From: Terriglobales bacterium
Lineage (GTDB): Bacteria; Acidobacteriota; Terriglobia; Terriglobales; SCQP01
Reading direction: 5' to 3'
Assembly (NCBI GenBank): GCA_035531375.1
Contig: DATKSZ010000149.1
Location: 903 to 64,902, forward strand
Length of the DNA: 64,000 nt
Both the position numbers and the translations under genes were made by a program. Positions 9,273-64,000 of this stretch are shown piece by piece (the first letter of the stretch is position 1; each line of letters opens with the position of its first letter). The notes under the pieces were generated by a model. It ran no database searches. It saw only the letters and a program-made list of their open reading frames with translations, and had not been told where the DNA came from.

Positions 9273-10406
9273 TTAGCGCAACTTCAGCGTGGTCAGCGCG
9301 AACAATGCGCAGACCGCGGCGATGATCCAAAAACGGATGATCACCTTCGACTCGCTCCAGCCCAAATGCTCGAAGTGGTGGTGCAGCGGCGCCATCTTGA
9401 AGATGCGCTTGCCCCGCAGCTTGTAGCTGCCCACCTGCAGGATCACCGACAGCGCCTCGATCACAAAAATGCCGCCCAGGAACGGCAGCAGCAGCTCCTG
9501 CTTGATCAGCACCGCCACCGTCCCGATCGCCCCCCCCAGCGCCAGCGAGCCCACGTCCCCCATGAAGATCTCCGCCGGATGGGCGTTGTACCAGAGGAAG
9601 CCGATGCTCGCCCCCACCATCGCCCCCCCGAAGATGGTGAGCTCGCCCACCTGCGGCATGCGCTCGATCTCCAGGTAGGTGGCAAACACCGCGTGCCCGG
9701 AGACGTAGGTCAGCACCGTCAGCGCCCCGGCGGAGATGATGGTGCAGCCGATCGCCAGCCCGTCCAGCCCGTCGGTGAGGTTGACCGCGTTGCTCGAGCC
9801 CACCACCACCAGCACCACGAACAGGATGAAGGGCAGGAACGCCACCAGGTACCAGCCCGGGTGCCCCAGCAGCCCGTTGAAGGCCAGGTTGGGGCGGTAG
9901 GCCTTGAAAAACGGCACCACCAGCCGGGTGGAGTAGCGCCCGGCGTGGTTCAGCCACACCAGGATGAGCGCGATCGCCACCGCCGCCAGCACCTGCGCCA
10001 GCAGCTTCTGGCGCGAGGTCAGGCCCAGGTTGCGCTGCCGCCGCACCTTGGCCAAATCGTCCGCCAGCCCGATCGCGCCAAACGCCACCACCGCCAAAAT
10101 CGCGATCCAGATGAAGGGGTTGGCCAGGTCGGCCCACAACAGCGTTGGCACCAGGATGGCGATGTTGATGAGCAGCCCGCCCATGGTGGGCGTGCCCGCC
10201 TTGGCGTGGTGCGAGCGCGGCCCGTCCTCGCGGATGTACTGGCCGATCTGGAAGGCCTGCAGCCGCCGGATCAGCCACGGCCCCAGCACCAGCGCGATCG
10301 CCAGCGCCGTCAGCCCGGCGAAGGCGGTGCGGAAGGTGAGGAAGCGGAACAGCCGCAGCGGCCGGTAGTAGGGAAACAGCTTGCGGTAGAAGAGCCAGTA
10401 GAGCAT
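9273..10406 (-). CDS. mraY: phospho-N-acetylmuramoyl-pentapeptide transferase
   Basis: HHAKAGTPTMGG, NAVNLTDGLDGLA, MGDVGSLALGG, APLHHHFE motifs. Confidence 0.95.
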   Translation of the reverse strand: MLYWLFYRKLFPYYRPLRLFRFLTFRTAFAGLTALAIALVLGPWLIRRLQAFQIGQYIREDGPRSHHAKAGTPTMGGLLINIAILVPTLLWADLANPFIWIAILAVVAFGAIGLADDLAKVRRQRNLGLTSRQKLLAQVLAAVAIALILVWLNHAGRYSTRLVVPFFKAYRPNLAFNGLLGHPGWYLVAFLPFILFVVLVVVGSSNAVNLTDGLDGLAIGCTIISAGALTVLTYVSGHAVFATYLEIERMPQVGELTIFGGAMVGASIGFLWYNAHPAEIFMGDVGSLALGGAIGTVAVLIKQELLLPFLGGIFVIEALSVILQVGSYKLRGKRIFKMAPLHHHFEHLGWSESKVIIRFWIIAAVCALFALTTLKLR

Positions 10407-24032: not shown

Positions 24033-24779
24033 ATGACCGCACCCGCCAAGATCGCGCTCTGGTCGCTGGCGGCGCTGGCCGCGCTGGCGGCCTTGGCCGC
24101 GCTGGTCTCGACCAGCGGCGTCTCCCCCGTCCGCACCCTCGCCCGCCTGCCCGCCGCCCGGCTCGACGAGCCCCGCCCGCTGCATGGCTCCGCGCCCACC
24201 CGGGAATCGGTGGTGCTGGCCGGCGGCTGCTTCTGGGGCATGCAATTGGTCTTCGAGCACGTGCGCGGCGTGGACGCCGTCACCGCGGGCTACGCCGGCG
24301 GCCTGGCCGCGACCGCCCACTACGACAGGGTGAGCACCGGCGCCACCGGCCACGCCGAGTCGGTGCGCATCGTCTACGATCCCGCCCGGGTCTCGCTGGG
24401 CACGCTGCTGCGCGTGTTCTTCTCCGTCGCCCACGACCCCACCGAGCTCGACTACCAGGGCCCCGACCAGGGCACGCAGTACCGCTCCGCCATCTTCTAC
24501 GCCAACCCCGGGCAATACCGCATCGCCCGCGCCTACATCGCCCAACTGCAGCAAGCGCGCGCCTTCCGCCGGCCCGTCGTCACCGGGCTGACGCCGCTCA
24601 CCGCCCAGCGCGGCTTCTATCCGGCCGAGGCGTATCATCAGGACTACGCCGCGCACAATCCGGATGACCTCTACATCCGCATCAACGACCTGCCCAAGCT
24701 CGCCGCCCTGCGCCGCCAGTGGCCCGCCCTCTCGCGGGACGCGCGGCGCAGCCGCGCAGGGGCCCGCGCCCACCATTGA
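24033..24779 (+). CDS. msrA: peptide-methionine (S)-S-oxide reductase
   Basis: GGCFWG active-site motif, GHAESVRIVYDP, YHQDY. N-terminal leader. The last ~15 codons are supplied by a repeat module. Confidence 0.9.
   Translation: MTAPAKIALWSLAALAALAALAALVSTSGVSPVRTLARLPAARLDEPRPLHGSAPTRESVVLAGGCFWGMQLVFEHVRGVDAVTAGYAGGLAATAHYDRVSTGATGHAESVRIVYDPARVSLGTLLRVFFSVAHDPTELDYQGPDQGTQYRSAIFYANPGQYRIARAYIAQLQQARAFRRPVVTGLTPLTAQRGFYPAEAYHQDYAAHNPDDLYIRINDLPKLAALRRQWPALSRDARRSRAGARAHH
24734..24776 (+). repeat. mosaic repeat, tail module only (copy J)
   Basis: GCGGGACGCGCGGCGCAGCCGCGCAGGGGCCCGCGCCCACC equals the 3' module of copies C and F. It lies inside the msrA 3' end. Confidence 0.7.
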
Positions 24780-32384: not shown

Positions 32385-32585
32385 TCGCGGGGGTCGCGCC
32401 GCTTTGCCTGTCGGCAAAATCGGCGCGAAAGGCCGCGAAATTCCGCAGGGCGGCCCGCCCCCGGGAAGCGACTTCGGCGCGGCCCCTGCGAGGCGCAGCG
32501 CCGGCTTGGGGCTCCGGGGCCCCCAAGCCGGCGTGAGCACAAGCGGGACGCGCGGCGCAGCCGCGCAGGGGCCCGCGCCCACCTT
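32385..32585 (+). repeat. mosaic hairpin repeat, copy C
   Basis: Head module (H1) plus H5 hairpin plus short tail. Confidence 0.9.
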
Positions 32586-32604
32586 CGCTGCCGCGTCCAT
32601 CGCC

Positions 32605-34632: not shown

Positions 34633-34919
34633 TCGCGGCGGTCGCCCCGCTTTGCCTGCTGGCAAAATCGGCGCGAAAGCCCGAAATTCCGCAGGGGCAG
34701 ACGCGCCCGTGGCGCGTCTGCGCCCCCGGGAAACGGCGGCCCCAGCAGCCCAGCAGCGAAGCCGCGCAGCGCCGGCTTGGGGCCATGGGGCCCCCGAGTC
34801 GGCGCGAGCATGCCGCCCCGCGCCGTTGCAGCGGGGCGGCACACAAGCGGGACGCGCGGCGCACCGGCCCGGCGCTGCTCCAGCCGGGCCGGGCAGGCGC
34901 GCTGGGGCCCGCGCCCACC
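34633..34919 (+). repeat. mosaic hairpin repeat, copy D (long form)
   Basis: Its last base abuts the TAA stop of the FG-GAP gene. Confidence 0.9.
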
Positions 34920-37900
34920 TTAGTTCAGAATCGTCAGCGTCAAGTTCAGCGCCGGCAGCGAGCCGCCGGTCATGTTGGCGCCGATGGCGATGGGCACTGC
35001 CCCCGCCGGCGGCGGCGTCCCGCCCCCGCCCAGGTTCGGCGCCGCGCTGGAGCCGCAGCCCACCAGTCCGCCGCCCAGGGCGAGGCCCAGCACCACCGCC
35101 AGGGCCCAGCCGCCGCGCCGCCCGCGGCGCTTGCGCCACCCCAGCGGCAGCAGTCCCAGCAGCGCCAGCGGCCACGCCATCGCCAGGTCGAATCCGCCCG
35201 GCGGCGGCAGCCCGGCCACGGTGGCGTCCACCGTGATGGTGAGCACGGTCGAGGCCGAGTCGCCCGCGCCGGCCAAGGTTGTCGGGATGGGATTGGGCGA
35301 GAAGCCGCAGTGCACATAGGCCGGCAGCGTGCTGGGGCAGGTGAAGGTGATGGGCGCGGAGAAGCCGTTGGGCGTGGTCACGGTGAGGGTGGTGGTGACG
35401 CTCTCGCCGCCCGAGGCCGTCAGCGACGAGGGGTTGGCGCTGATCAGGTACTGCACCGTGGCGTCTTGCGGCGTGGTGACGTTGGCGCTCTCGAAGTTGC
35501 TGTCGCCCGAGTAGGAAGCGGTGATGGCGTAGGGCGTGGCGCTGGGCGCCAGCACCGGCGACAGCACCCCGGCGTTGGAGCTCAGCGCCACCGCGCCGCC
35601 GGGGATGGCAATGCCGTTGCTGTAGAAGGTGATCGTGCCCGAGGGGTTGGGCGCGTTCCCCAGCGTCGCCGTGGTCGAGACCGTGCCGGTCAAGACCAGC
35701 GGCGTGATGCTGGCGCCGCTGGCCACGCCCCCGCTCACCGCCAGCGTCAGCGTGGTCGGCGCCTTGCCCAGGGTGTAGGAAGTGGCGTCGGCGCCCTGGC
35801 TGCTTTGGAAGTTGCCGCTGGCGTCGCTGTAGCAGGCGGTGACGGTGAGGCCGCTGCCGGCCCCCACCACCACGCCGGAGACGCTGGCGGCGCCGTTCTG
35901 CACCGTGGCCGTGGCCACGTAGGCGGAGACCGAGCAGGCCGCCCCCGCCGTCCCCACGATAAAGCCCACGCTGCCCTCGGCCACCGGCGCGCTGGCGTTG
36001 TTGCTGTTCGCCACCGTGGCGCTGAAGCTCACCGGGCCGGGATAGGTGTTGGTCGCCTCGGTGAAGCTGGCGCTGACCGCGGTCGGCGCCGCCGTCACCT
36101 GCAGCGGCACGGTGCCGGCGGTGGTGCTGGCGGCGAAGCTGCCGCTGCCGCTGTAGCTGGCCGAGACCAGGTAGCTGCCCACCGGAATGGCGCCGCTGGC
36201 GCTGGCCGTGCCGCCCTGCACCGAGGCCGCCATCAGTTGCACCGGGCTGGCACAGGCCCCGGTCGCGGGACACAGGCTGAAGGTCACCGACCCGCCCGCC
36301 ACCGATCCCCCCGTCCAGGTCACCGCCGCCGTCAGCGTGCCCGGGCCGGGATAGACCGCCGTCGCCGCCAGTCCGGTGACGGTGATCGTGGTCGATGTCG
36401 CGCTGCTCGAGGCCACCCCGTTGTTGACCAGCAGCGCCGCCCCCTGGCTGGTCGAGACCAGCACGCCGGGGCTGCCCCCCACCGGCGCGGTTCCCGCCGC
36501 CGCCAGGTTCGAATCCACCCCGGCCACCGTCCCCACCGTCGGCGGCAGCAGTTGTCCCTTCACGTTTTGATAGGCGTAGGCGACGCCATTCGCCAGCGCC
36601 ACCACGTCCGGCAGCGCCGAGCCGTAGAACTTGCCGGTGGCCAGCACCGGGTCGTAGCTGACGCAGCCGGCGTAGTTGCCCCCGGCGTTGCAGTTGGGCC
36701 CGGGAATGCTGTCGCCGGCGTAGAGCGGCTGCGCCGGCTGCGGGGTGAAGCTGCCCGCCTGCCCCGCGGTGTTGAGCAGCACCTGCACCCCCTGGCTGCC
36801 CGCCACCACGAGGTCGGGCAGGCCGTCGCCGTTGATGTCGGCCGAGGCCACCGCGCTGAAGTTGGGGTAGGGCGTTCCCACCGCCTGGCTCAACAGCGTG
36901 GGGTTGGTCGGCGCCACCAGCATGCCGCCGTTGTTTTGCAAAATCCCCACCGCCGCGCCGCCCTGAGCGGCGGTGTTGCCGCTGCACAACTCGCCGCCAT
37001 CCACCAGCGCCAGGTCGGGCTGCTTGCCCTGGAAAAAGAAGTCGGCCGCCCCCGCCACCGGGTTCACCACCGGCGGCGCCACGTACACCGGGTTGGCGAA
37101 GGTGCCATCGCCCTTGCCCAGGAACACATACACCGCCCCCAGCGAATCCCCCGTGCCGTCGTTGTTGCAGTTGTTGCCGTTTTCCGGGAGCACCAGCACC
37201 AGGTCGGCCTTGCCATCGCCGTTGACGTCGAAGGCGAACATCTGCGGCTGCGCCCCCGCCCCGGGCGTGCTGGGCCGGTAGTTGTAGCCGGGATAGCCGG
37301 GGGCCGCGGAGAGGTTGTAGCTATAGGTCGGGGTGAAGGTCCCGTCGCCGTTCGCGCCCATCACCACCACCGTGTCCGCGCCAAACAGCGCCAAGTCGCT
37401 GTTGCTCGAGGGCCCGAAGTTGCCCGCCACCTCGGCATCGGCGCCGCTGTAGCTCAGGCTGGCATTGGCGACCGTGGTCACCGGCACAGTGGTGGTGGTG
37501 GGCAGCGCCCCGCTGGCGTTGGCCAGGTAGACGGTGAAGTTGGGCTCGCCCGTCGCCAAGTCGCCGCCCAGCACCGCCAAGTCGGTCTTGCCGTCGCCGT
37601 TGAAGTCGCCGGTGGCGAAGCCGGGCGGAAAGTTGTACCCATTGCGGCCGGTGCCGGGATAGAGCGTTGCCGTGCCGCCCACCGCCCCCGCCGCGTTCAG
37701 CACATAGACGTCAATCGAGCGCTCGTCGGTGAAGCTTTGGAAAATAGGAAACGAGCCGGCGTGGACGCCGGCGCCGATGACCACGTAGCCTGGGCTGGCC
37801 AGGTTGGGCGAGTAACCGCTGGCCAGCGCCTGCTCCGGCGGGCTCAGCGCCCCGCTCGCCTGCCAGGTGCCGTTGAACGTGCCCCCGCTGCCGCTGAAGT

Positions 37901-39794: not shown

Positions 39795-41951
39795 TCAGCG
39801 GCAGCGCCGCACCTGGGCCAGCAGCCGCCCCAGATCGTGCGTGGCCGGCGGCGAGGCGGCGCCGTAGCGCACCGCTTGGTAGGCGGCGACGAAGGCGGTG
39901 GCGGCGGCCAGCAGGGGCGAGCGCGGCCGCGCCGCCGCCACCTCGCCCAGCAGCTCCTCGCTGGTCTGCGCCGGCCGGGGCGCGAAGCCCGCCCGCCGCA
40001 GCGTGCGCTGGAAGCGCCGGTAGGCGCGCCGCGCCCGCCGCGCCGCCGCCTCCTCCTCCGCCGCCGCCCCGGGCCCGGCGCGCCACCAGCCCCGCCGCCG
40101 CACCGTCCAGCCCGCCAGCCCCAGCCCGCCCAAAAGCACCAGCCCCGCCGCCCCCTCCGCCCAGCCCTTCGCGCCCGCGCCGCCGCCGGCGCCGAGCTGC
40201 CGCCAGGCCGCGCTGGCCGCCGCCCCGCCTTGGCTCCAGGCCCGCGCCACGCTCTCCGCCACCCGCGTCTCCACCCCCTCCGCCAGCCGCGCCTGCCGCA
40301 GCCAGTCGTAATTGACGATCCACTCCTGCCACAGGCTGGAGAGCGCATCCAGCACCATCCCTCCCCCCCAGCCCGCCGCCGCCGCGCTCGCCCCCGCCGG
40401 GGTGGCGTCGAAGCTCATCCAGGTCCCCGGCTGGAAGCCCCGCCCCCGCCGCTCCCCCGGAAAATACGCCTCCACCCAACTGTGCGCGTCCCGCCCCCGC
40501 ACCACGTACTCGCCCGACAGCGGGTTGTAGGCGTCCACCACAAACCCGTTCACCACCCGCGTCGGGATCCCCAGCGTGCGCGCCATCACCGCCAGCGCCG
40601 AGGCGAAGTACTCGCAGTCGCCCGCCTGCTGGTCAAACAGAAACTCTGCCAGCGGGTCCGCCCCCTGCGGCAGGTCCTCCAGCGTGTACTGGTAGTGGGT
40701 CTGCAGATACCCGCTCAGCGCCTGCATCCGGTCCCAGTCGTCGCCCGGCGCGTGGGCCACGATCGAGCGCGCCAGCAGCGGAATGCGCGGGTCCAGCCCC
40801 CGCGGCAGTTGCAGGTAGGCCTGGAAGCCGAAGCGGAAGCGCACCCGCGCCCGCGGATCGCGGCGCAGCGCCTGCGGGCTGGGTTGCGCCAGGTCGGAGA
40901 CGCCGGCATAGGAGGTGCCCGCGAAGTCGGCGCCCAGGCTGGCCAGCGTCCCCGTCGCCCGGTCCCAGGCCAGCACCGGAAAGTGGGTGGAGGCGCGCAG
41001 CAGTTGCGCCGGGAAAAACAGCACCGGGCTGTTCATCGGCTCCAGCGTCACCTGGTAGCGCACCAGCTCGGGCGGCGATCCGGCGCTGTAGCGGCTCACG
41101 TCCAGCCGCCCCGCCTGGGTGCCGTACAGCCCCGGGGTGGAGTCGCTGGTCCAGCGCTGCCCATCGAAGTGGGTCAGTCCCCGCCCCCGCCACCGGATCT
41201 GCTGGAACTGGGCCGGCGTCAGCGGCGGATCGCTGCTCACCAGCCGGATGTGCATCACCGGCGTGTCGCTGCGCTCCAGGCTGGCGATCGCCCCCAGCCG
41301 CACCTCGTCGCTGAAGCCGGTCAGCCCCCGCGCCGCCGGCCGCGCCGCCCACACCCCCATCCCCGTGCGCGGCAGCAGGAAGAAGATCACCACGCTGCTC
41401 AGCGCCACCCCCAGGCTGAGCAGCAGCGAAAAGCGGAACAGCGGCCGCAGCGGCGAGCCCCCTCCCGGCGCCGCCCGCTGCGCCTCCGCCCGCGCCATTT
41501 CCTGCGCCACCAGCGTCGCCACCAGCAGCACCAAGAACAGCAGGAAGAGCACAAAAAACAGTCCCGACACCGTCAGCAGCGCTGCCGTCAACACCTCGAG
41601 AAAGGCCAGCAGTCCCAGCAACAGCGTGTCCCGGCCCGACTCCGGCGCCAGCAGCTTGCCCGCCCCCGCCAGCACCACCAGGTGCAGCGTGGCCTGCAGC
41701 AGGCTGTGCGACCACAACAGCGCGTCGCCGGCGTAGACCGGAAGGTAGAGCAGCAGCCCCGCCAACCAAACCCGGTTGGGGACGGTCAAGCTGCGCCGCC
41801 GCAAAAACCCATAGCAGCGCACCGCATAGGCGCTTCCCGCCGCCACCACAATCGGCCAGGCCAGCCGCCCGGTGCTGGCTAGGGTGAAAAACCCGGTCGC
41901 CAGCAACAGCAGCAGCAGGCCGTCGAAGTAGCGCCGCAGCGGCGTGCCCAT
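39795..41951 (-). CDS. transglutaminase-like protein with N-terminal polytopic membrane domain (TgpA/DUF3488-like)
   Basis: Six N-terminal TM helices. Core QAGDCEYFASALAVMARTLGIPTRVVNGF..GRDAHSWVE (Cys-His-Asp type). Confidence 0.85.
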   Translation of the reverse strand: MGTPLRRYFDGLLLLLLATGFFTLASTGRLAWPIVVAAGSAYAVRCYGFLRRRSLTVPNRVWLAGLLLYLPVYAGDALLWSHSLLQATLHLVVLAGAGKLLAPESGRDTLLLGLLAFLEVLTAALLTVSGLFFVLFLLFLVLLVATLVAQEMARAEAQRAAPGGGSPLRPLFRFSLLLSLGVALSSVVIFFLLPRTGMGVWAARPAARGLTGFSDEVRLGAIASLERSDTPVMHIRLVSSDPPLTPAQFQQIRWRGRGLTHFDGQRWTSDSTPGLYGTQAGRLDVSRYSAGSPPELVRYQVTLEPMNSPVLFFPAQLLRASTHFPVLAWDRATGTLASLGADFAGTSYAGVSDLAQPSPQALRRDPRARVRFRFGFQAYLQLPRGLDPRIPLLARSIVAHAPGDDWDRMQALSGYLQTHYQYTLEDLPQGADPLAEFLFDQQAGDCEYFASALAVMARTLGIPTRVVNGFVVDAYNPLSGEYVVRGRDAHSWVEAYFPGERRGRGFQPGTWMSFDATPAGASAAAAGWGGGMVLDALSSLWQEWIVNYDWLRQARLAEGVETRVAESVARAWSQGGAAASAAWRQLGAGGGAGAKGWAEGAAGLVLLGGLGLAGWTVRRRGWWRAGPGAAAEEEAAARRARRAYRRFQRTLRRAGFAPRPAQTSEELLGEVAAARPRSPLLAAATAFVAAYQAVRYGAASPPATHDLGRLLAQVRRCR

Positions 41952-42001: not shown

Positions 42002-43171
42002 ATGGGCGCGCCCTTCCATTGGGTCTTCCACACTCCTTTGGCCGAGCAGAGCGACGATTTCCTGCTCTTGGCGGGCACCCTGGCGCGCGACTTCCAGGCC
42101 GAGCTGAGCGCCGCCCCCGCCCCAGCGGGGCGCAGCGCCGATTTGGGGCCACGGGGCCCCCAAATCGGCGCAAGCACAAGCGGGACGCGCGCCGCAGGCG
42201 CGCTGGGGCCCGCGCCAACCATCGGCTGGGTGCTGCGCGCCGATTTTGCCGGCGACGAGATGGAGGCGGAGGAGCGCGGCCGCGCCTTTTGGCTGGAACT
42301 CCACAGCCGCTGCCTCGACGCCAACCTCGCCATGGAACTGGTCGAGGGCTTCGAGCCCGCCCAAGGCTGGCGTCCCGCCTCCGGCCTGGCCCCCGCGCCG
42401 GAAGCCTCCGCCGCCGCCCTGCCAGCGGCGGCCGCCGCGCTGGCCCCGCCCGCGCCGGCGGCGCTCGCCCGCCAGCGCCCGCCCATCCCCGCCCAGACCG
42501 TCTACGACCTGCTGCGCGCCGACGACCCCGACCTCGACCGCAATCTGGACGAGACCATCGCCTGGATCGAAGCCGCCGGCCTACCCGTCATCAACCTGCT
42601 CAGCTATCTCGACCTGCCGCTGTTTCGCGGCTACGCCGCCGAGCACCCCGACGAGCGCGACCAGAACCTCTTCTTGCACATGCTGCACACCTGGGCCTGC
42701 TTCCGCCGCTGGGGCGCGGTGGGCGCGGTGTTGCCGCCGGCGCTGGCCCAGGCCTTCGCCGACCCGCGCTACCTGCGGTTGAACACCACCCAGTTCCGCT
42801 CCCCCGCCCCCGCCCTCTGCCTGCAACTCGCCGACTGGTCCGAGCCGGTGCGCCCGGTGGCCGGCGGCGCCCCGCAATGGGCCAAGGAGATCTACCTCAC
42901 CCACCTGGACCCCCCCACCCCCGCCGACGACCGCGAGCTCACCCTGATGATCGTCAGCTACGACGAGCGCGGCGAGTTTGGCTTCATTCCCTTGGAGATC
43001 CCGCTCAGCCTGCCCGGCGTGGGCGAGTCCATCGCGGCTTTTTTCGCCCCCAGCGCCGGCGACGAGGAGCTGGGCGCCAACACCGAAGACCTGCATCGCC
43101 TCACCGTGCTGGCCGCCACCTATTGCCTCTATGCCACCGCCCGCGACCCCGCCCTCTACCTCGCCGGCTGA
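42002..43171 (+). CDS. hypothetical protein carrying an in-frame repeat-module insertion
   Basis: ATG start. Protein-like sequence on both sides of the repeat. No recognisable family. Confidence 0.55.
   Translation: MGAPFHWVFHTPLAEQSDDFLLLAGTLARDFQAELSAAPAPAGRSADLGPRGPQIGASTSGTRAAGALGPAPTIGWVLRADFAGDEMEAEERGRAFWLELHSRCLDANLAMELVEGFEPAQGWRPASGLAPAPEASAAALPAAAAALAPPAPAALARQRPPIPAQTVYDLLRADDPDLDRNLDETIAWIEAAGLPVINLLSYLDLPLFRGYAAEHPDERDQNLFLHMLHTWACFRRWGAVGAVLPPALAQAFADPRYLRLNTTQFRSPAPALCLQLADWSEPVRPVAGGAPQWAKEIYLTHLDPPTPADDRELTLMIVSYDERGEFGFIPLEIPLSLPGVGESIAAFFAPSAGDEELGANTEDLHRLTVLAATYCLYATARDPALYLAG
42120..42222 (+). repeat. mosaic repeat, H5 plus tail modules (copy E), inside a CDS
   Basis: GCGCAGCGCCGATTTGGGGCCACGGGGCCCCCAAATCGGCGC...GGGGCCCGCGCCAACC. 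Confidence 0.8.
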
Positions 43172-44522
43172 GGCCGGCGCCGCCGCGCCCGACCACGCCG
43201 CCACCGCCGGCGAAGCGCAGCGCCGGCTTGGGGCCGCGGGGCCCCCAAGCCGGCGTGAGCACAAGCGGGACGCGCGGCGCAGCCGCGCTGGGGCCCGCGC
43301 CAACCATTGGGAGGCCGCCTTCTTCGCCCTGCTCGCCGCCGCCGCCGCCGCGCTCGCCCTGTTGCGCCCCGACAAGGCGATTGATTTCCACGTCTACGTG
43401 GAGAACGCCCGCCACTACTTTCTGGCCGGCGCCGCCATGTACGGCCCCCACAGCGGCACCGGCTGGGCGGGCGGGGTGTACCGCTATCCCCCCATCTTCT
43501 TGGATCTGTTCCGCCCGCTCTCGCTGCTGCCGCTGCGGTGGGGCGCCGCGCTCTGGGCGGTGGGCAAGCTGGCCCTCGGCGGCGCCCTGGCGGTGCGCCT
43601 GCGCCGCCGCTGGCATCTGGCCAGCATCCTCCCCTTCTGGCCGGCGCTGCTGCTGGTGGCCGCTTACTTCATCCAGGAGTTACGCTACGGCAACGCCCAG
43701 TTCTATATCGTTGCCCTGGTGGTGCTCGCCTTCCTGGCCGACGATCCGCGCTGGGGCGGCTTCTGGCTGGGCTTCGCCGCCGCCCTCAAGGTCTGGCCGC
43801 TGTTCTTCTTCCCCTGCCTGGTCCCGCGCCGGCGCCTGCGCATGCTCGGCGCCGCCGTCGCCAGCGGCGTGGGCTGGACGCTGCTGCCGGTGCTCTGGCG
43901 CGGCTGGACGGCGCAGGGGCGGCTGCTCGCGCAATGGCTGGCGCAGGAGCGCTCCATCGCCGCCACCAGCGCCGCCCGCGGCGAGCTCTGGTACCCCGGC
44001 CAGTCGCTGCACGACGTCATGGCCCGCTACCTCGGCGTGTTGAACTACTCCCGCCTCGCCGACGCCCGCTACGTGCAGGTGGCCTGGGCCCACTGCGCCC
44101 CCGCCACGGTCGAGCGCCTGTGGTGGGCCGTGGTCGCGGTCTTGCTGGTGGCGATGTTTGGGTGGCTGTGGCGTGCCCAGGGCAGCGAGGACGGGGTGGT
44201 GGCGCTGTTGTTCTGCGGCGTGGTGGTGTTCGAGCCCCACGTCCACCGCCTCATCCTCGAGACCCTGCTGTGGTCGGCGCTGTGGCTGGCCTCCGAGCGG
44301 GCGCAGGGCCGCCTCGCCGGCTGGCGCCGCGCCCTGTTCTGGCTGGCGGTGGCGGCGGCGGTGGCGCAGCCCTTGGTGCCCGGCGCCGCCCGCCAGCGCT
44401 GGCTGCAGGTCTACGGCGTGGACTTCTTTTTCGTGGTGGTGCCGCTCACCGCCGTAGTGGCGCGGCAGGCCTGGCTAGGGCATATCGCCGATAGGCAGGC
44501 GCGCGCGGCGGCGGCAGACTGA
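43131..44522 (+). CDS. polytopic membrane glycosyltransferase (DUF2029/GT87-like); start uncertain
   Basis: About 10 TM helices; YRYPPIF and NAQFY motifs. No ATG/GTG/TTG between repeat F and the first TM helix. The nearest in-frame ATG is 43131, upstream of the repeat. Confidence 0.6.
   Translation: MPPPATPPSTSPAEAGAAAPDHAATAGEAQRRLGAAGPPSRREHKRDARRSRAGARANHWEAAFFALLAAAAAALALLRPDKAIDFHVYVENARHYFLAGAAMYGPHSGTGWAGGVYRYPPIFLDLFRPLSLLPLRWGAALWAVGKLALGGALAVRLRRRWHLASILPFWPALLLVAAYFIQELRYGNAQFYIVALVVLAFLADDPRWGGFWLGFAAALKVWPLFFFPCLVPRRRLRMLGAAVASGVGWTLLPVLWRGWTAQGRLLAQWLAQERSIAATSAARGELWYPGQSLHDVMARYLGVLNYSRLADARYVQVAWAHCAPATVERLWWAVVAVLLVAMFGWLWRAQGSEDGVVALLFCGVVVFEPHVHRLILETLLWSALWLASERAQGRLAGWRRALFWLAVAAAVAQPLVPGAARQRWLQVYGVDFFFVVVPLTAVVARQAWLGHIADRQARAAAAD
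43215..43306 (+). repeat. mosaic repeat, H5 plus tail modules (copy F)
   Basis: Near-identical to the 3' half of copy C. Confidence 0.85.
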
Positions 44523-47162: not shown

Positions 47163-47496
47163 TCGCGGGGGTCGCGCCGCTTTGCCTGCTGGCAAAATCG
47201 GCGCGAAAGGCTGCGAACCTGGGTCCCCTGAGCCCGCCTCGGGTTCTGGGGTGGTCGTAATTCCGCAGGCGCAGACGCGCCAGTGGCGCGTCTGCGCCCC
47301 CGGGAAGCGAATTCGGCGCGGCCCCCCTGGCAGTGAAGCAGCGCAGCGCCGACTTGGGGCCATGGGGCCCCCGAGTCGGCGCGAGCATGCCGCCCCGCGC
47401 ATCTACAGCGGGGCGGCTCACAAGCGGGACGCGCGCCGCACCGGCCCGGCGCGGCTACAGCCGGGCCGGGCCGGCGCGCTGGGGCCCGCGCCCACC
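47163..47496 (+). repeat. mosaic hairpin repeat, copy G (longest, all modules)
   Basis: H1, H2, H3, H5, H6, outer tail hairpin with nested H8, then GGGGCCCGCGCCCACC. Confidence 0.9.
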
Positions 47497-47533
47497 AAAG
47501 TGTCTGCGGCCCGCCTGGGCCGCGGGAGGATCC

Positions 47534-53515: not shown

Positions 53516-53556
53516 GCACAGCCCGTCTTGGCTGTGCAGGCGCCAGCTTGGCTGGC
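53516..53556. terminator. two adjacent hairpins between convergent genes
   Basis: GCACAGCC-CGTCTT-GGCTGTGC and GCCAGC-TTG-GCTGGC. No U-run. Confidence 0.35.
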
Positions 53557-63834: not shown

Positions 63835-64000
63835 TCGCGGGGGTCGCGCCGCTTTGCCAGCTGGCAAAACCGGCGCGAAAGGCTGCGAACCGGGGTCCCC
63901 AGAACCCGCTTCGGGTTCTGGGGTGGTCGTAATTCCGCAGGCGCAGACGCGCCAGTGGCGCGTCTGCGCCCCCGGGAAGCGAATTCGGCGCGGCCCCAGC
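63835..64000 (+). repeat. mosaic hairpin repeat, copy I (truncated by window end)
   Basis: H1, H2 and H3 modules nearly identical to copy G. Confidence 0.9.

Follow-up and report, generated by a model that had tools for sequence, protein, structure and literature searches.

The stretch of DNA analysed here, 64,000 nucleotides from a Terriglobales bacterium (Acidobacteriota; contig DATKSZ010000149.1, positions 903 to 64,902), is referred to as the window and has a GC content of 71%. On its + strand a gene at 42002..43171, delimited on the basis of homologs, alignment, GC content at third codon positions (GC3), the ratio of nonsynonymous to synonymous substitution rates (dN/dS) and an AlphaFold model, encodes a conserved hypothetical protein of 389 amino acids. 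Within this host gene, at 42124..42223 and on the same strand, lies a 100-nt unit, termed 'H5 + tail', of a dispersed, hairpin-forming repeat family, which was recognised with an nhmmer profile, by its absence from the closest orthologous locus (L001) and from 25 orthologs, and by an alignment of units. Upstream of the host gene there is a divergent TgpA-like transglutaminase gene on the - strand (39795..41951; Pfam TgpA_N, Transglut_core and DUF4129), and the 3' end of the host gene is overlapped by a GT87 glycosyltransferase gene on the + strand (43131..44522; Pfam GT87, gene calls and N-terminal alignment) which carries a second unit of the same family. The host gene is placed in a conserved chromosomal tgpA / X / GT87 / DUF3857 cluster. 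The repeat in the host gene is read as an in-frame passenger insertion, with the protein probably translated from 42002 with an extra loop, a reading to which a probability of about 0.85 is given.

A search of 5.8 billion proteins returned 46 homologs of the host protein, one of which (P0001, from a Terriglobales metagenome-assembled genome, MAG) is an exact match; besides P0001 there are about 45 Terriglobales orthologs of roughly 330-390 amino acids, every one annotated as 'hypothetical', and a Pfam search of the host protein matched no family. In the protein a disordered linker joins an N-terminal beta-alpha-beta-beta-alpha domain to a C-terminal domain, and translation of the open reading frame (ORF) 42002-43171 gives MGAPFHWVF...ELSAAP, then APAGRSADLGPRGPQIGASTSGTRAAGALGPAPTIG, then WVLRADFAGDEMEAEERG. 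The original prediction had described this ORF as ordinary protein both before and after the repeat, which is what is found, with conservation among orthologs on either side, but it had left two options, either a tolerated insertion of about 33 residues or a true start downstream of the repeat. Candidate downstream starts are present in frame (GTG 42230 and ATG 42260), long spurious ORFs occur everywhere in a window of such high GC content and copies of the family are mostly intergenic, all of which would suit a repeat that lies in 5' untranslated or intergenic DNA beneath an accidental upstream ORF. However, residues 1-39 are conserved in an alignment with 25 orthologs, W7, E15, Q16, L23 and A33 being nearly invariant, and it is not the case, as had been envisaged, that orthologs start at the methionine of DEMEAEERG. 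The codons 5' of the repeat have the low-GC2/high-GC3 signature of coding DNA (GC2, second codon positions), whilst the repeat itself is without that signature. Relative to L001, whose product P0002 is 79% identical to the host protein by BLASTP and 88% identical in the ortholog alignment, the 37 N-terminal codons have a dN/dS of 0.09, compared to 0.18 for the part directly beyond the insert and 0.16 over the C-terminal domain. The 50-nt spacer between the start of the tgpA-like gene (41951) and 42002 is also conserved in L001 in a DNA alignment. The upstream codons are modelled within the N-terminal domain at a block-mean predicted local distance difference test score (pLDDT) of 90-96, and a consensus scan in and after the element revealed no promoter-like site, an element-borne promoter or terminator being rejected on the same scan. 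Because of the ortholog conservation of the N-terminus, the GC3 pattern, the dN/dS values and the conserved spacer, the start of the host gene is, on this comparative sequence evidence, at 42002, and a downstream start, against which the structure model also speaks, is extremely unlikely. That the element marks a recombination breakpoint in the host gene, as a raised dS in the 37 N-terminal codons might have suggested, was rejected as unsupported by the identity profile, which is 84-89% on both sides.

The nhmmer profile of the unit matches 42125-42222 with E=2e-26, as well as further copies elsewhere in the window, and repeat grouping within the window places 42112-42224 together with 1390-1502, 32475-32587 and 43197-43309; the earlier assignment of 42120-42222 to the H5 plus tail part of the family thus holds, with limits refined to 42124-42223. 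The unit is translated in element frame a as residues about 42-74. None of the 25 aligned orthologs has the stretch GRSADLGPRGPQIGASTSGTRAAGALGPAPTI, and a DNA alignment to L001 gives a clean 96-nt gap at the insert site, a net gain of 32 amino acids, with both flanks collinear with the L001 locus and no target duplication visible relative to the L001 empty site. Directly 5' of the unit is a C-tract coding for proline and alanine, GCC GCC CCC GCC CC. Orthologs differ by 0-3 residues in length at the turn that carries the insert, and the boundaries of the unit are therefore uncertain by about 4 nt. The unit at 42124 carries private substitutions relative to other copies in the unit alignment, in which its nearest copy is one in another genome (L004 6298). 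That it is a local duplicate of the unit at 43209 is ruled out, the two copies being different covarying sub-types (GAT..ATC/GCC..GGC for 42124 and GGC..GCC/GGC..GCC for 43209).

All six frames of the unit at 42124-42223, which is 77% GC, are free of stops, some other copies having one stop in one frame, and from base composition alone the chance of six stop-free frames is estimated at about 1 in 8. The stop-free translation and preserved frame that had drawn attention to the locus are real, but since all six unit frames are open the preserved frame is weak evidence by itself; it is the net length of the insert, and not the frame in which it is read, that decides. The openness of the unit also bears on whether the gene is a young pseudogene, crippled by the insertion and kept open only by a stop-free element in a GC-rich genome. 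Such a history would sit well with an insertion that is not datable and with the very stable hairpin that the mRNA gains, but the 389-residue frame is intact with all conserved residues kept, dN/dS is low both before and after the insert, the insert occupies a variable turn modelled as an external loop, and the start of the GT87 gene that overlaps the 3' end of the host gene is itself intact. Moreover, the 389-residue product is identical on 8 contigs, of 20 kb to >1 Mb and from at least two sources, and the insert-bearing allele is the sole allele seen on these contigs (n=8). A pseudogene is accordingly rated as unlikely. The same contigs bear on the suspicion that a MAG-derived window and a dispersed repeat together produced a repeat-induced assembly chimera, which, given in addition flanks collinear with the orthologous locus and a copy with private substitutions, can be virtually discounted.

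When AlphaFold was run with the ortholog alignment (mean pLDDT 79.5) the N-terminal domain was modelled as beta1-alpha1-beta2 / beta3-alpha2, with the beta1-alpha1-beta2 part, encoded by the upstream codons, packing against the strand after the insert. The strands E33-39 and E76-82 have block-mean pLDDT values of about 89-96, whilst residues 40-75 between them have values of 35-56 and are without secondary structure. The insert, 32 residues rich in glycine, proline, alanine, serine and threonine, is thus predicted to be an excursion from a beta-hairpin turn, forming an external disordered loop; the question of a surface loop raised by the original prediction receives, in the model, the answer of a low-confidence loop between confident beta-strands. 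In a Foldseek search of the Protein Data Bank (PDB) with the modelled host protein the sole significant fold match was the anti-CRISPR protein AcrVA2 (7ci2_A, 7ci1_B), with E=3e-4 and a template modelling (TM) score of about 0.33-0.39 over about 230 columns.

The sequence of events envisaged for the in-frame insertion is that a 100-nt unit of a mosaic hairpin family would have been inserted into the coding part of a gene conserved in Terriglobales, landing in a length-variable turn between two beta-strands right after a Pro/Ala-coding C-tract. The gene would have stayed open through a GC-rich unit with no stop in any frame and a net gain of 96 nt, a multiple of three, and translation from the original start at 42002 would yield a protein with an extra disordered surface loop of 32 residues. 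Of the two options originally offered it is the tolerated in-frame insertion that stands, with a net 32 rather than about 33 residues, and the insertion is read here as a tolerated passenger and not as an adaptation. A number of points count against such a reading. Neither the precise limits of the insert nor the sequence of the site before insertion is certain, the closest empty site being about 12-16% diverged and placed in a loop of variable length; the mRNA gains a strong hairpin, the unit having a fold of about -41 kcal/mol (folded as DNA); the insertion cannot be dated; and the full-length insert-bearing protein and its activity are predictions from sequence and model.

The repeat family itself is a mosaic in which optional hairpin modules H1, H2 and H3 are followed by the 100-nt 'H5 + tail' unit, and in the long copies further hairpins are nested inside that unit, including one in the loop of the tail hairpin; the copy in the host gene is a single bare unit. 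Copies of the unit are 77-81% GC. With up to 3 mismatches allowed, the window contains 8 occurrences of a 19-nt core, AGCACAAGCGGGACGCGCG, compared to 0.17 expected, and all 8 are on the + strand; a scan of genome contigs found the family at at least 9 loci. A consensus structure was derived with RNAalifold from 14 units from five genomes, and both hairpins were recovered. In the host gene the H5 hairpin, at 42135..42171 (+), has a 14-bp stem, GCGCCGATTTGGGG / CCCCAAATCGGCGC, plus 2 more pairs, and single-sequence folds agree with the consensus; the tail hairpin, at 42180..42213 (+), has an outer stem GCGGG/CCCGC and an inner stem GCGCGCC-gca-GGCGCGC. There are compensatory double changes at five pairs, four of them in H5 (variants GAT..ATC, GGC..GCC and GAC..GTC) and one in the tail, where pair 70-76 alternates between G-C and C-G. 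The consensus also contains G-U pairs, which on the opposite strand would be A-C. The compensatory changes show that the hairpin structure is selected, and the G-U pairs that it is so on the + strand. The unit has no terminal inverted repeats, the best inverted match of its termini being 9/14 and that of the outermost 20 nt 6/20. A search of the window with Rfam 15 gave only a tRNA above the gathering threshold, and the composite copy at 47163-47501 gave no match at E<=1, with chance-level hits only; a known structured RNA family was ruled out by this absence of Rfam matches. Unit copies are 96-97% identical between two genomes (window 43207-43306 compared to L001 71-169 and 9834-9926), whilst orthologous genes are 84-89% identical, which, as far as sequence comparison goes, points to an element that is strongly constrained, has spread recently or is exchanged.

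The second unit at the locus, at 43209..43308 (+), was identified from a filled/empty site comparison and a protein alignment and lies in the N-terminal tail of the GT87 protein, before the first transmembrane segment (TM1), where it is translated in element frame b (EAQRRLGAAGPPSRREHKRDARRSRAGARANH). The first 41 nt of the GT87 gene are shared with the 3' end of the host gene, an arrangement also present in four orthologous loci, and the start is an ATG 41-47 nt inside the upstream gene in L001, L015, L016 and L017 and also in the annotation of L018, which is of the same genome; ATG 43131 is the sole in-frame start before TM1 and the conserved RPDKAIDFHVY motif. Relative to L001 the net gain is 93 nt, or 31 amino acids, with 7 nt of the L001 empty site missing and no target duplication, and the called GT87 proteins are of 463 amino acids in L018 and 432 in L001. 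The N-terminal alignment places the 31-residue insert in the window only, and it is absent from L001, L015, L016 and L017. The frame-b peptide is very basic (EAQRRLGAAGPPSRREHKRDARRSR...), which, under the positive-inside rule, would suit a cytoplasmic tail before TM1. The bases 5' of this unit are CGCC, not CCCC.

That the units at 42124 and 43209 bracket most of the host gene raises the question of co-option, in which the peptide would be a functional module or the mRNA hairpins would regulate the host gene and the overlapping GT87 gene. Compensatory changes do maintain the hairpins, and units are 96% alike across genomes against the 84-89% of orthologous genes. On the other hand, these units turn up in unrelated genes as well as between genes, the host gene and the GT87 gene use different element frames, every other ortholog is without the insert and the peptide is predicted to be disordered, and co-option is rated as highly unlikely.

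A number of other genes, in related MAGs, also carry the unit. In P0050, a D-2-hydroxyacid dehydrogenase, the unit is internal and flanked by a 17-nt direct repeat; the corresponding insert in L004 is of 100+17 nt, the perfect direct repeat GACCAGCCCCCCTCCCC that flanks the unit being seen only in L004. In P0049, a UvrC-like protein, the domain PF22920 matches in two stretches, and 1.5 units separate the UVR motif from the stretch that scores best, which comes after the insert. A scan of 1.84 billion representative proteins, made with the frame-a peptide only and hence uninformative on frame preference, produced 10 matches, among them P0055, of 812 amino acids, in which the unit is again internal. 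In several of the 10 (GBBH-like, dynamin, MazE and SIS proteins) the repeat is a run-in at the N or C terminus that, judged from sequence, looks like a mis-called start or stop, and N-terminal extensions of the types seen in P0052, P0053 and P0058 are likely start-codon errors. In L001 there is a two-unit insertion (9733-9927) of 195 nt that is absent from L002 and L003. L001 and L002 are 99.6% identical up to this insertion (L002 9714/9715), beyond which identity is 81% (L002) or 92% (L003), and a recombination boundary seems to coincide with the two-unit repeats in L001.

The host gene family has also been entered by a second family of dispersed repeats, no copy of which was found in the window. 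The host-protein orthologs P0016 and P0007 have in-frame inserts of 36-42 residues in the inter-domain linker that derive from it, copies being located at L019 10301-10411, L019 9863-9958 and L020 6248-6373, as linker inserts and in the upstream spacer. A clean 108-nt filled/empty pair, in comparison with L021 and L025, is without duplication and lies at CCCCT | CCCGC, and this family is also polymorphic in the upstream spacer of host-gene orthologs.

The intragenic inserts of the first family are all of a length divisible by three (+96, +93, 100+17 and 195 nt) though the unit itself is of length 3n+1, and their junctions are irregular, by about -4, -7 and +17 nt. The empty site in L002 and L003 reads TCCCC|GG, and the filled site in L001 is without duplication. 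CCCC stands 5' of three of the four independent intragenic units, including 42124 and L004 5144; in composites the module 5' of the unit ends in ggcgcggCCCC, in tandem arrays each further unit stands behind the C-rich tail of the one before it, and intragenic copies land behind proline and alanine codons (SAAPAP|, DQPPSP| and LAASP|). The + strand of the window, on which all its copies lie, has a GC skew of -0.10 (down to -0.17 locally) and contains 1033 CCCC and 288 GGGG, and among non-redundant loci 29 of 35 copies are on the locally C-rich strand. The element is regarded here as a mobile hairpin element that inserts without target duplication and targets C-tracts. C-tracts on the C-rich strand would serve as targets, units being placed 3' of them with no regular target duplication, and such a rule would account for the bias in orientation, for mosaics built head to tail and for the position of intragenic copies behind proline and alanine codons. 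Such a preference may bias hits to Pro/Ala-rich loops and linkers in sense orientation, and precise 100-nt insertions, which shift the frame, would be purged, leaving as survivors those in which irregular junctions or double units restore a multiple of three.

It is possible, and is proposed tentatively, that the mobilising enzyme is a single-strand HUH/Y1 transposase of the IS200/IS605 type or of the type associated with repetitive extragenic palindromic (REP) sequences (RAYT). A tblastn search of 238 kb with approximate sequences of two Y1 transposases gave one match, in L010 (Pfam Y1_Tnp, E=6e-10). This RAYT-like gene, at L010 2188-2721, ends about 1 nt upstream of a composite copy, a longer ORF reading through the composite, and it adjoins an IS21 istB gene (1254-2117). 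Several observations are difficult to reconcile with a C-tract-targeting mobile element of this kind. CCCC is 3.6-fold in excess on the + strand, which could by itself account for the orientation bias; the junctions are inconsistent, with none, a 17-nt duplication and an apparent 7-nt loss among them; no cognate transposase with the ends of the element was found in the 397 kb of DNA examined; and the Y1_Tnp gene of L010 carries its own GTGG-tagged GCACAGCC hairpins instead of the unit hairpins. A GTGG-tagged hairpin (GCACAGCCAATCCTGGCTGTGC) at L010 2662-2683 and 2940-2961 brackets the composite, and a similar one is located in the window at 53516-53537. The L010 contig is labelled Streptosporangiaceae yet carries acidobacterial repeats and is probably mis-binned. 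A broader proposal, that Terriglobales harbour at least two strand-specific hairpin families which home to C-tracts, and so to Pro/Ala-coding linkers read in sense, without target duplication and systematically seed new disordered loops, with intragenic survivors filtered for junction irregularities that restore the frame and with an HUH-type enzyme whose CCCC rule and strand preference are unlike that described for IS200/IS605, is considered doubtful.

Amongst known non-autonomous elements, those of IS200/IS605 (palindrome-associated transposable elements, PATEs) resemble the unit in that they lack terminal inverted repeats and have a hairpin close to either end. The resemblance may extend to insertion 3' of a short motif, here CCCC, with no target duplication in the cleanest filled/empty pair, and to a strong strand bias. 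The differences are that no autonomous copy or TnpA was found in the DNA examined and that one copy has a 17-nt direct repeat. The C-rich strand is, moreover, not the strand expected from IS608 or ISDra2, if skew reflects replication. Like REPs and bacterial interspersed mosaic elements (BIMEs), the family consists of small stem-loops in mosaics, with G-T pairs revealing a preferred strand, and is mostly intergenic with some intragenic copies; intragenic REPs are notable in DNA-repair genes, and here a UvrC-like protein is affected. However, in the 14-unit alignment there is no GTAG or CGTC tag at either hairpin, the H5 stem lying between GCGCA and GAGCA and the tail stem being preceded by GGGA. 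The stems, moreover, are of 14-16 bp and 7+5 bp compared to 8-9 bp in REPs (CGTC families), and the units are mostly head-to-tail, whereas REPs form inverted dimers, with no RAYT seen to be linked to the units in the DNA examined. Intragenic GTAG- and CGTC-tagged REPs outside Rickettsia have already been described (Di Nocera et al. 2013, PMC3733652), in Opitutus, Thauera and others and often in DNA-repair genes (PMC3733652; review PMC10969869). [quoted passage not shown] A REP/BIME-like or PATE-like family is the closest description.

The analogy originally drawn was with the Rickettsia palindromic elements (RPEs; Ogata et al. 2000 and 2002, as summarised in PMC10969869 and PMC3733652), which are likewise short, hairpin-forming dispersed repeats found in frame in otherwise conserved, unrelated genes as well as in intergenic DNA, adding roughly 30-50 residues without counterpart in orthologs at places where the fold tolerates them. 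A dispersed palindromic repeat in frame in ORFs whose orthologs lack it was found in the host gene, GT87, P0049, P0050 and P0055. The analogy survives as regards in-frame behaviour, other genes of the clade also carrying the unit, but probably does not extend to descent. The present family is from the phylum Acidobacteriota (Terriglobales) and is 77-81% GC; its unit comprises two separate hairpins whereas an RPE is a single long palindrome; translation makes use of at least two element frames (frame a for the host gene and frame b for GT87); and it is a mosaic of optional modules. From host and base composition, common descent with RPEs is very unlikely. Functionally the events are instances of the RPE phenomenon, and also resemble intragenic REPs, the family and the host being new and the kind of event known.

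Protein-coding palindromic repeats are best known from Rickettsia, and the same phenomenon is here met in free-living, high-GC soil Acidobacteriota, with two neighbouring genes affected in a single genome and two repeat families having entered a single gene family. For annotation, it follows that N-terminal extensions through such repeats are sometimes real, as appears to be the case for the host gene and GT87, and sometimes likely start-codon errors. If the C-tract preference is true, it may steer insertions to Pro/Ala-rich loops and linkers, and frame-restoring junctions would decide their survival.

Other copies in the window, all on the + strand, illustrate the modular construction of the family. 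A composite intergenic copy at 32385..32587 consists of the H1-H2 modules and, 3' of them, a complete H5+tail unit (32487-32586), with the junction ggcgcggCCCC | unit, and the longest composite, at 47163..47501 and also intergenic, contains H1, H2 with an insert, H3, H5, H4 and a tail with a nested hairpin. The H1-H3 part (47163-47330, 63835-64000 and the left parts of other composites) looks multi-branched, tcgcggggg ... cccccggga closing three hairpins; its Rfam hits are sub-threshold and at chance level, and it has internal deletion variants at repeated TCGGCGCG motifs. In the composite at 34633-34924 the 3' end (..CCCACCTTA) appears to abut or overlap the stop of a 1402-amino-acid ORF on the minus strand that ends at 34920. 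A tail-only copy at 24721..24779 (+) forms the end of an MsrA-like gene (24033-24779), to which it contributes approximately 15 final codons (SRDARRSRAGARAHH) and the stop.

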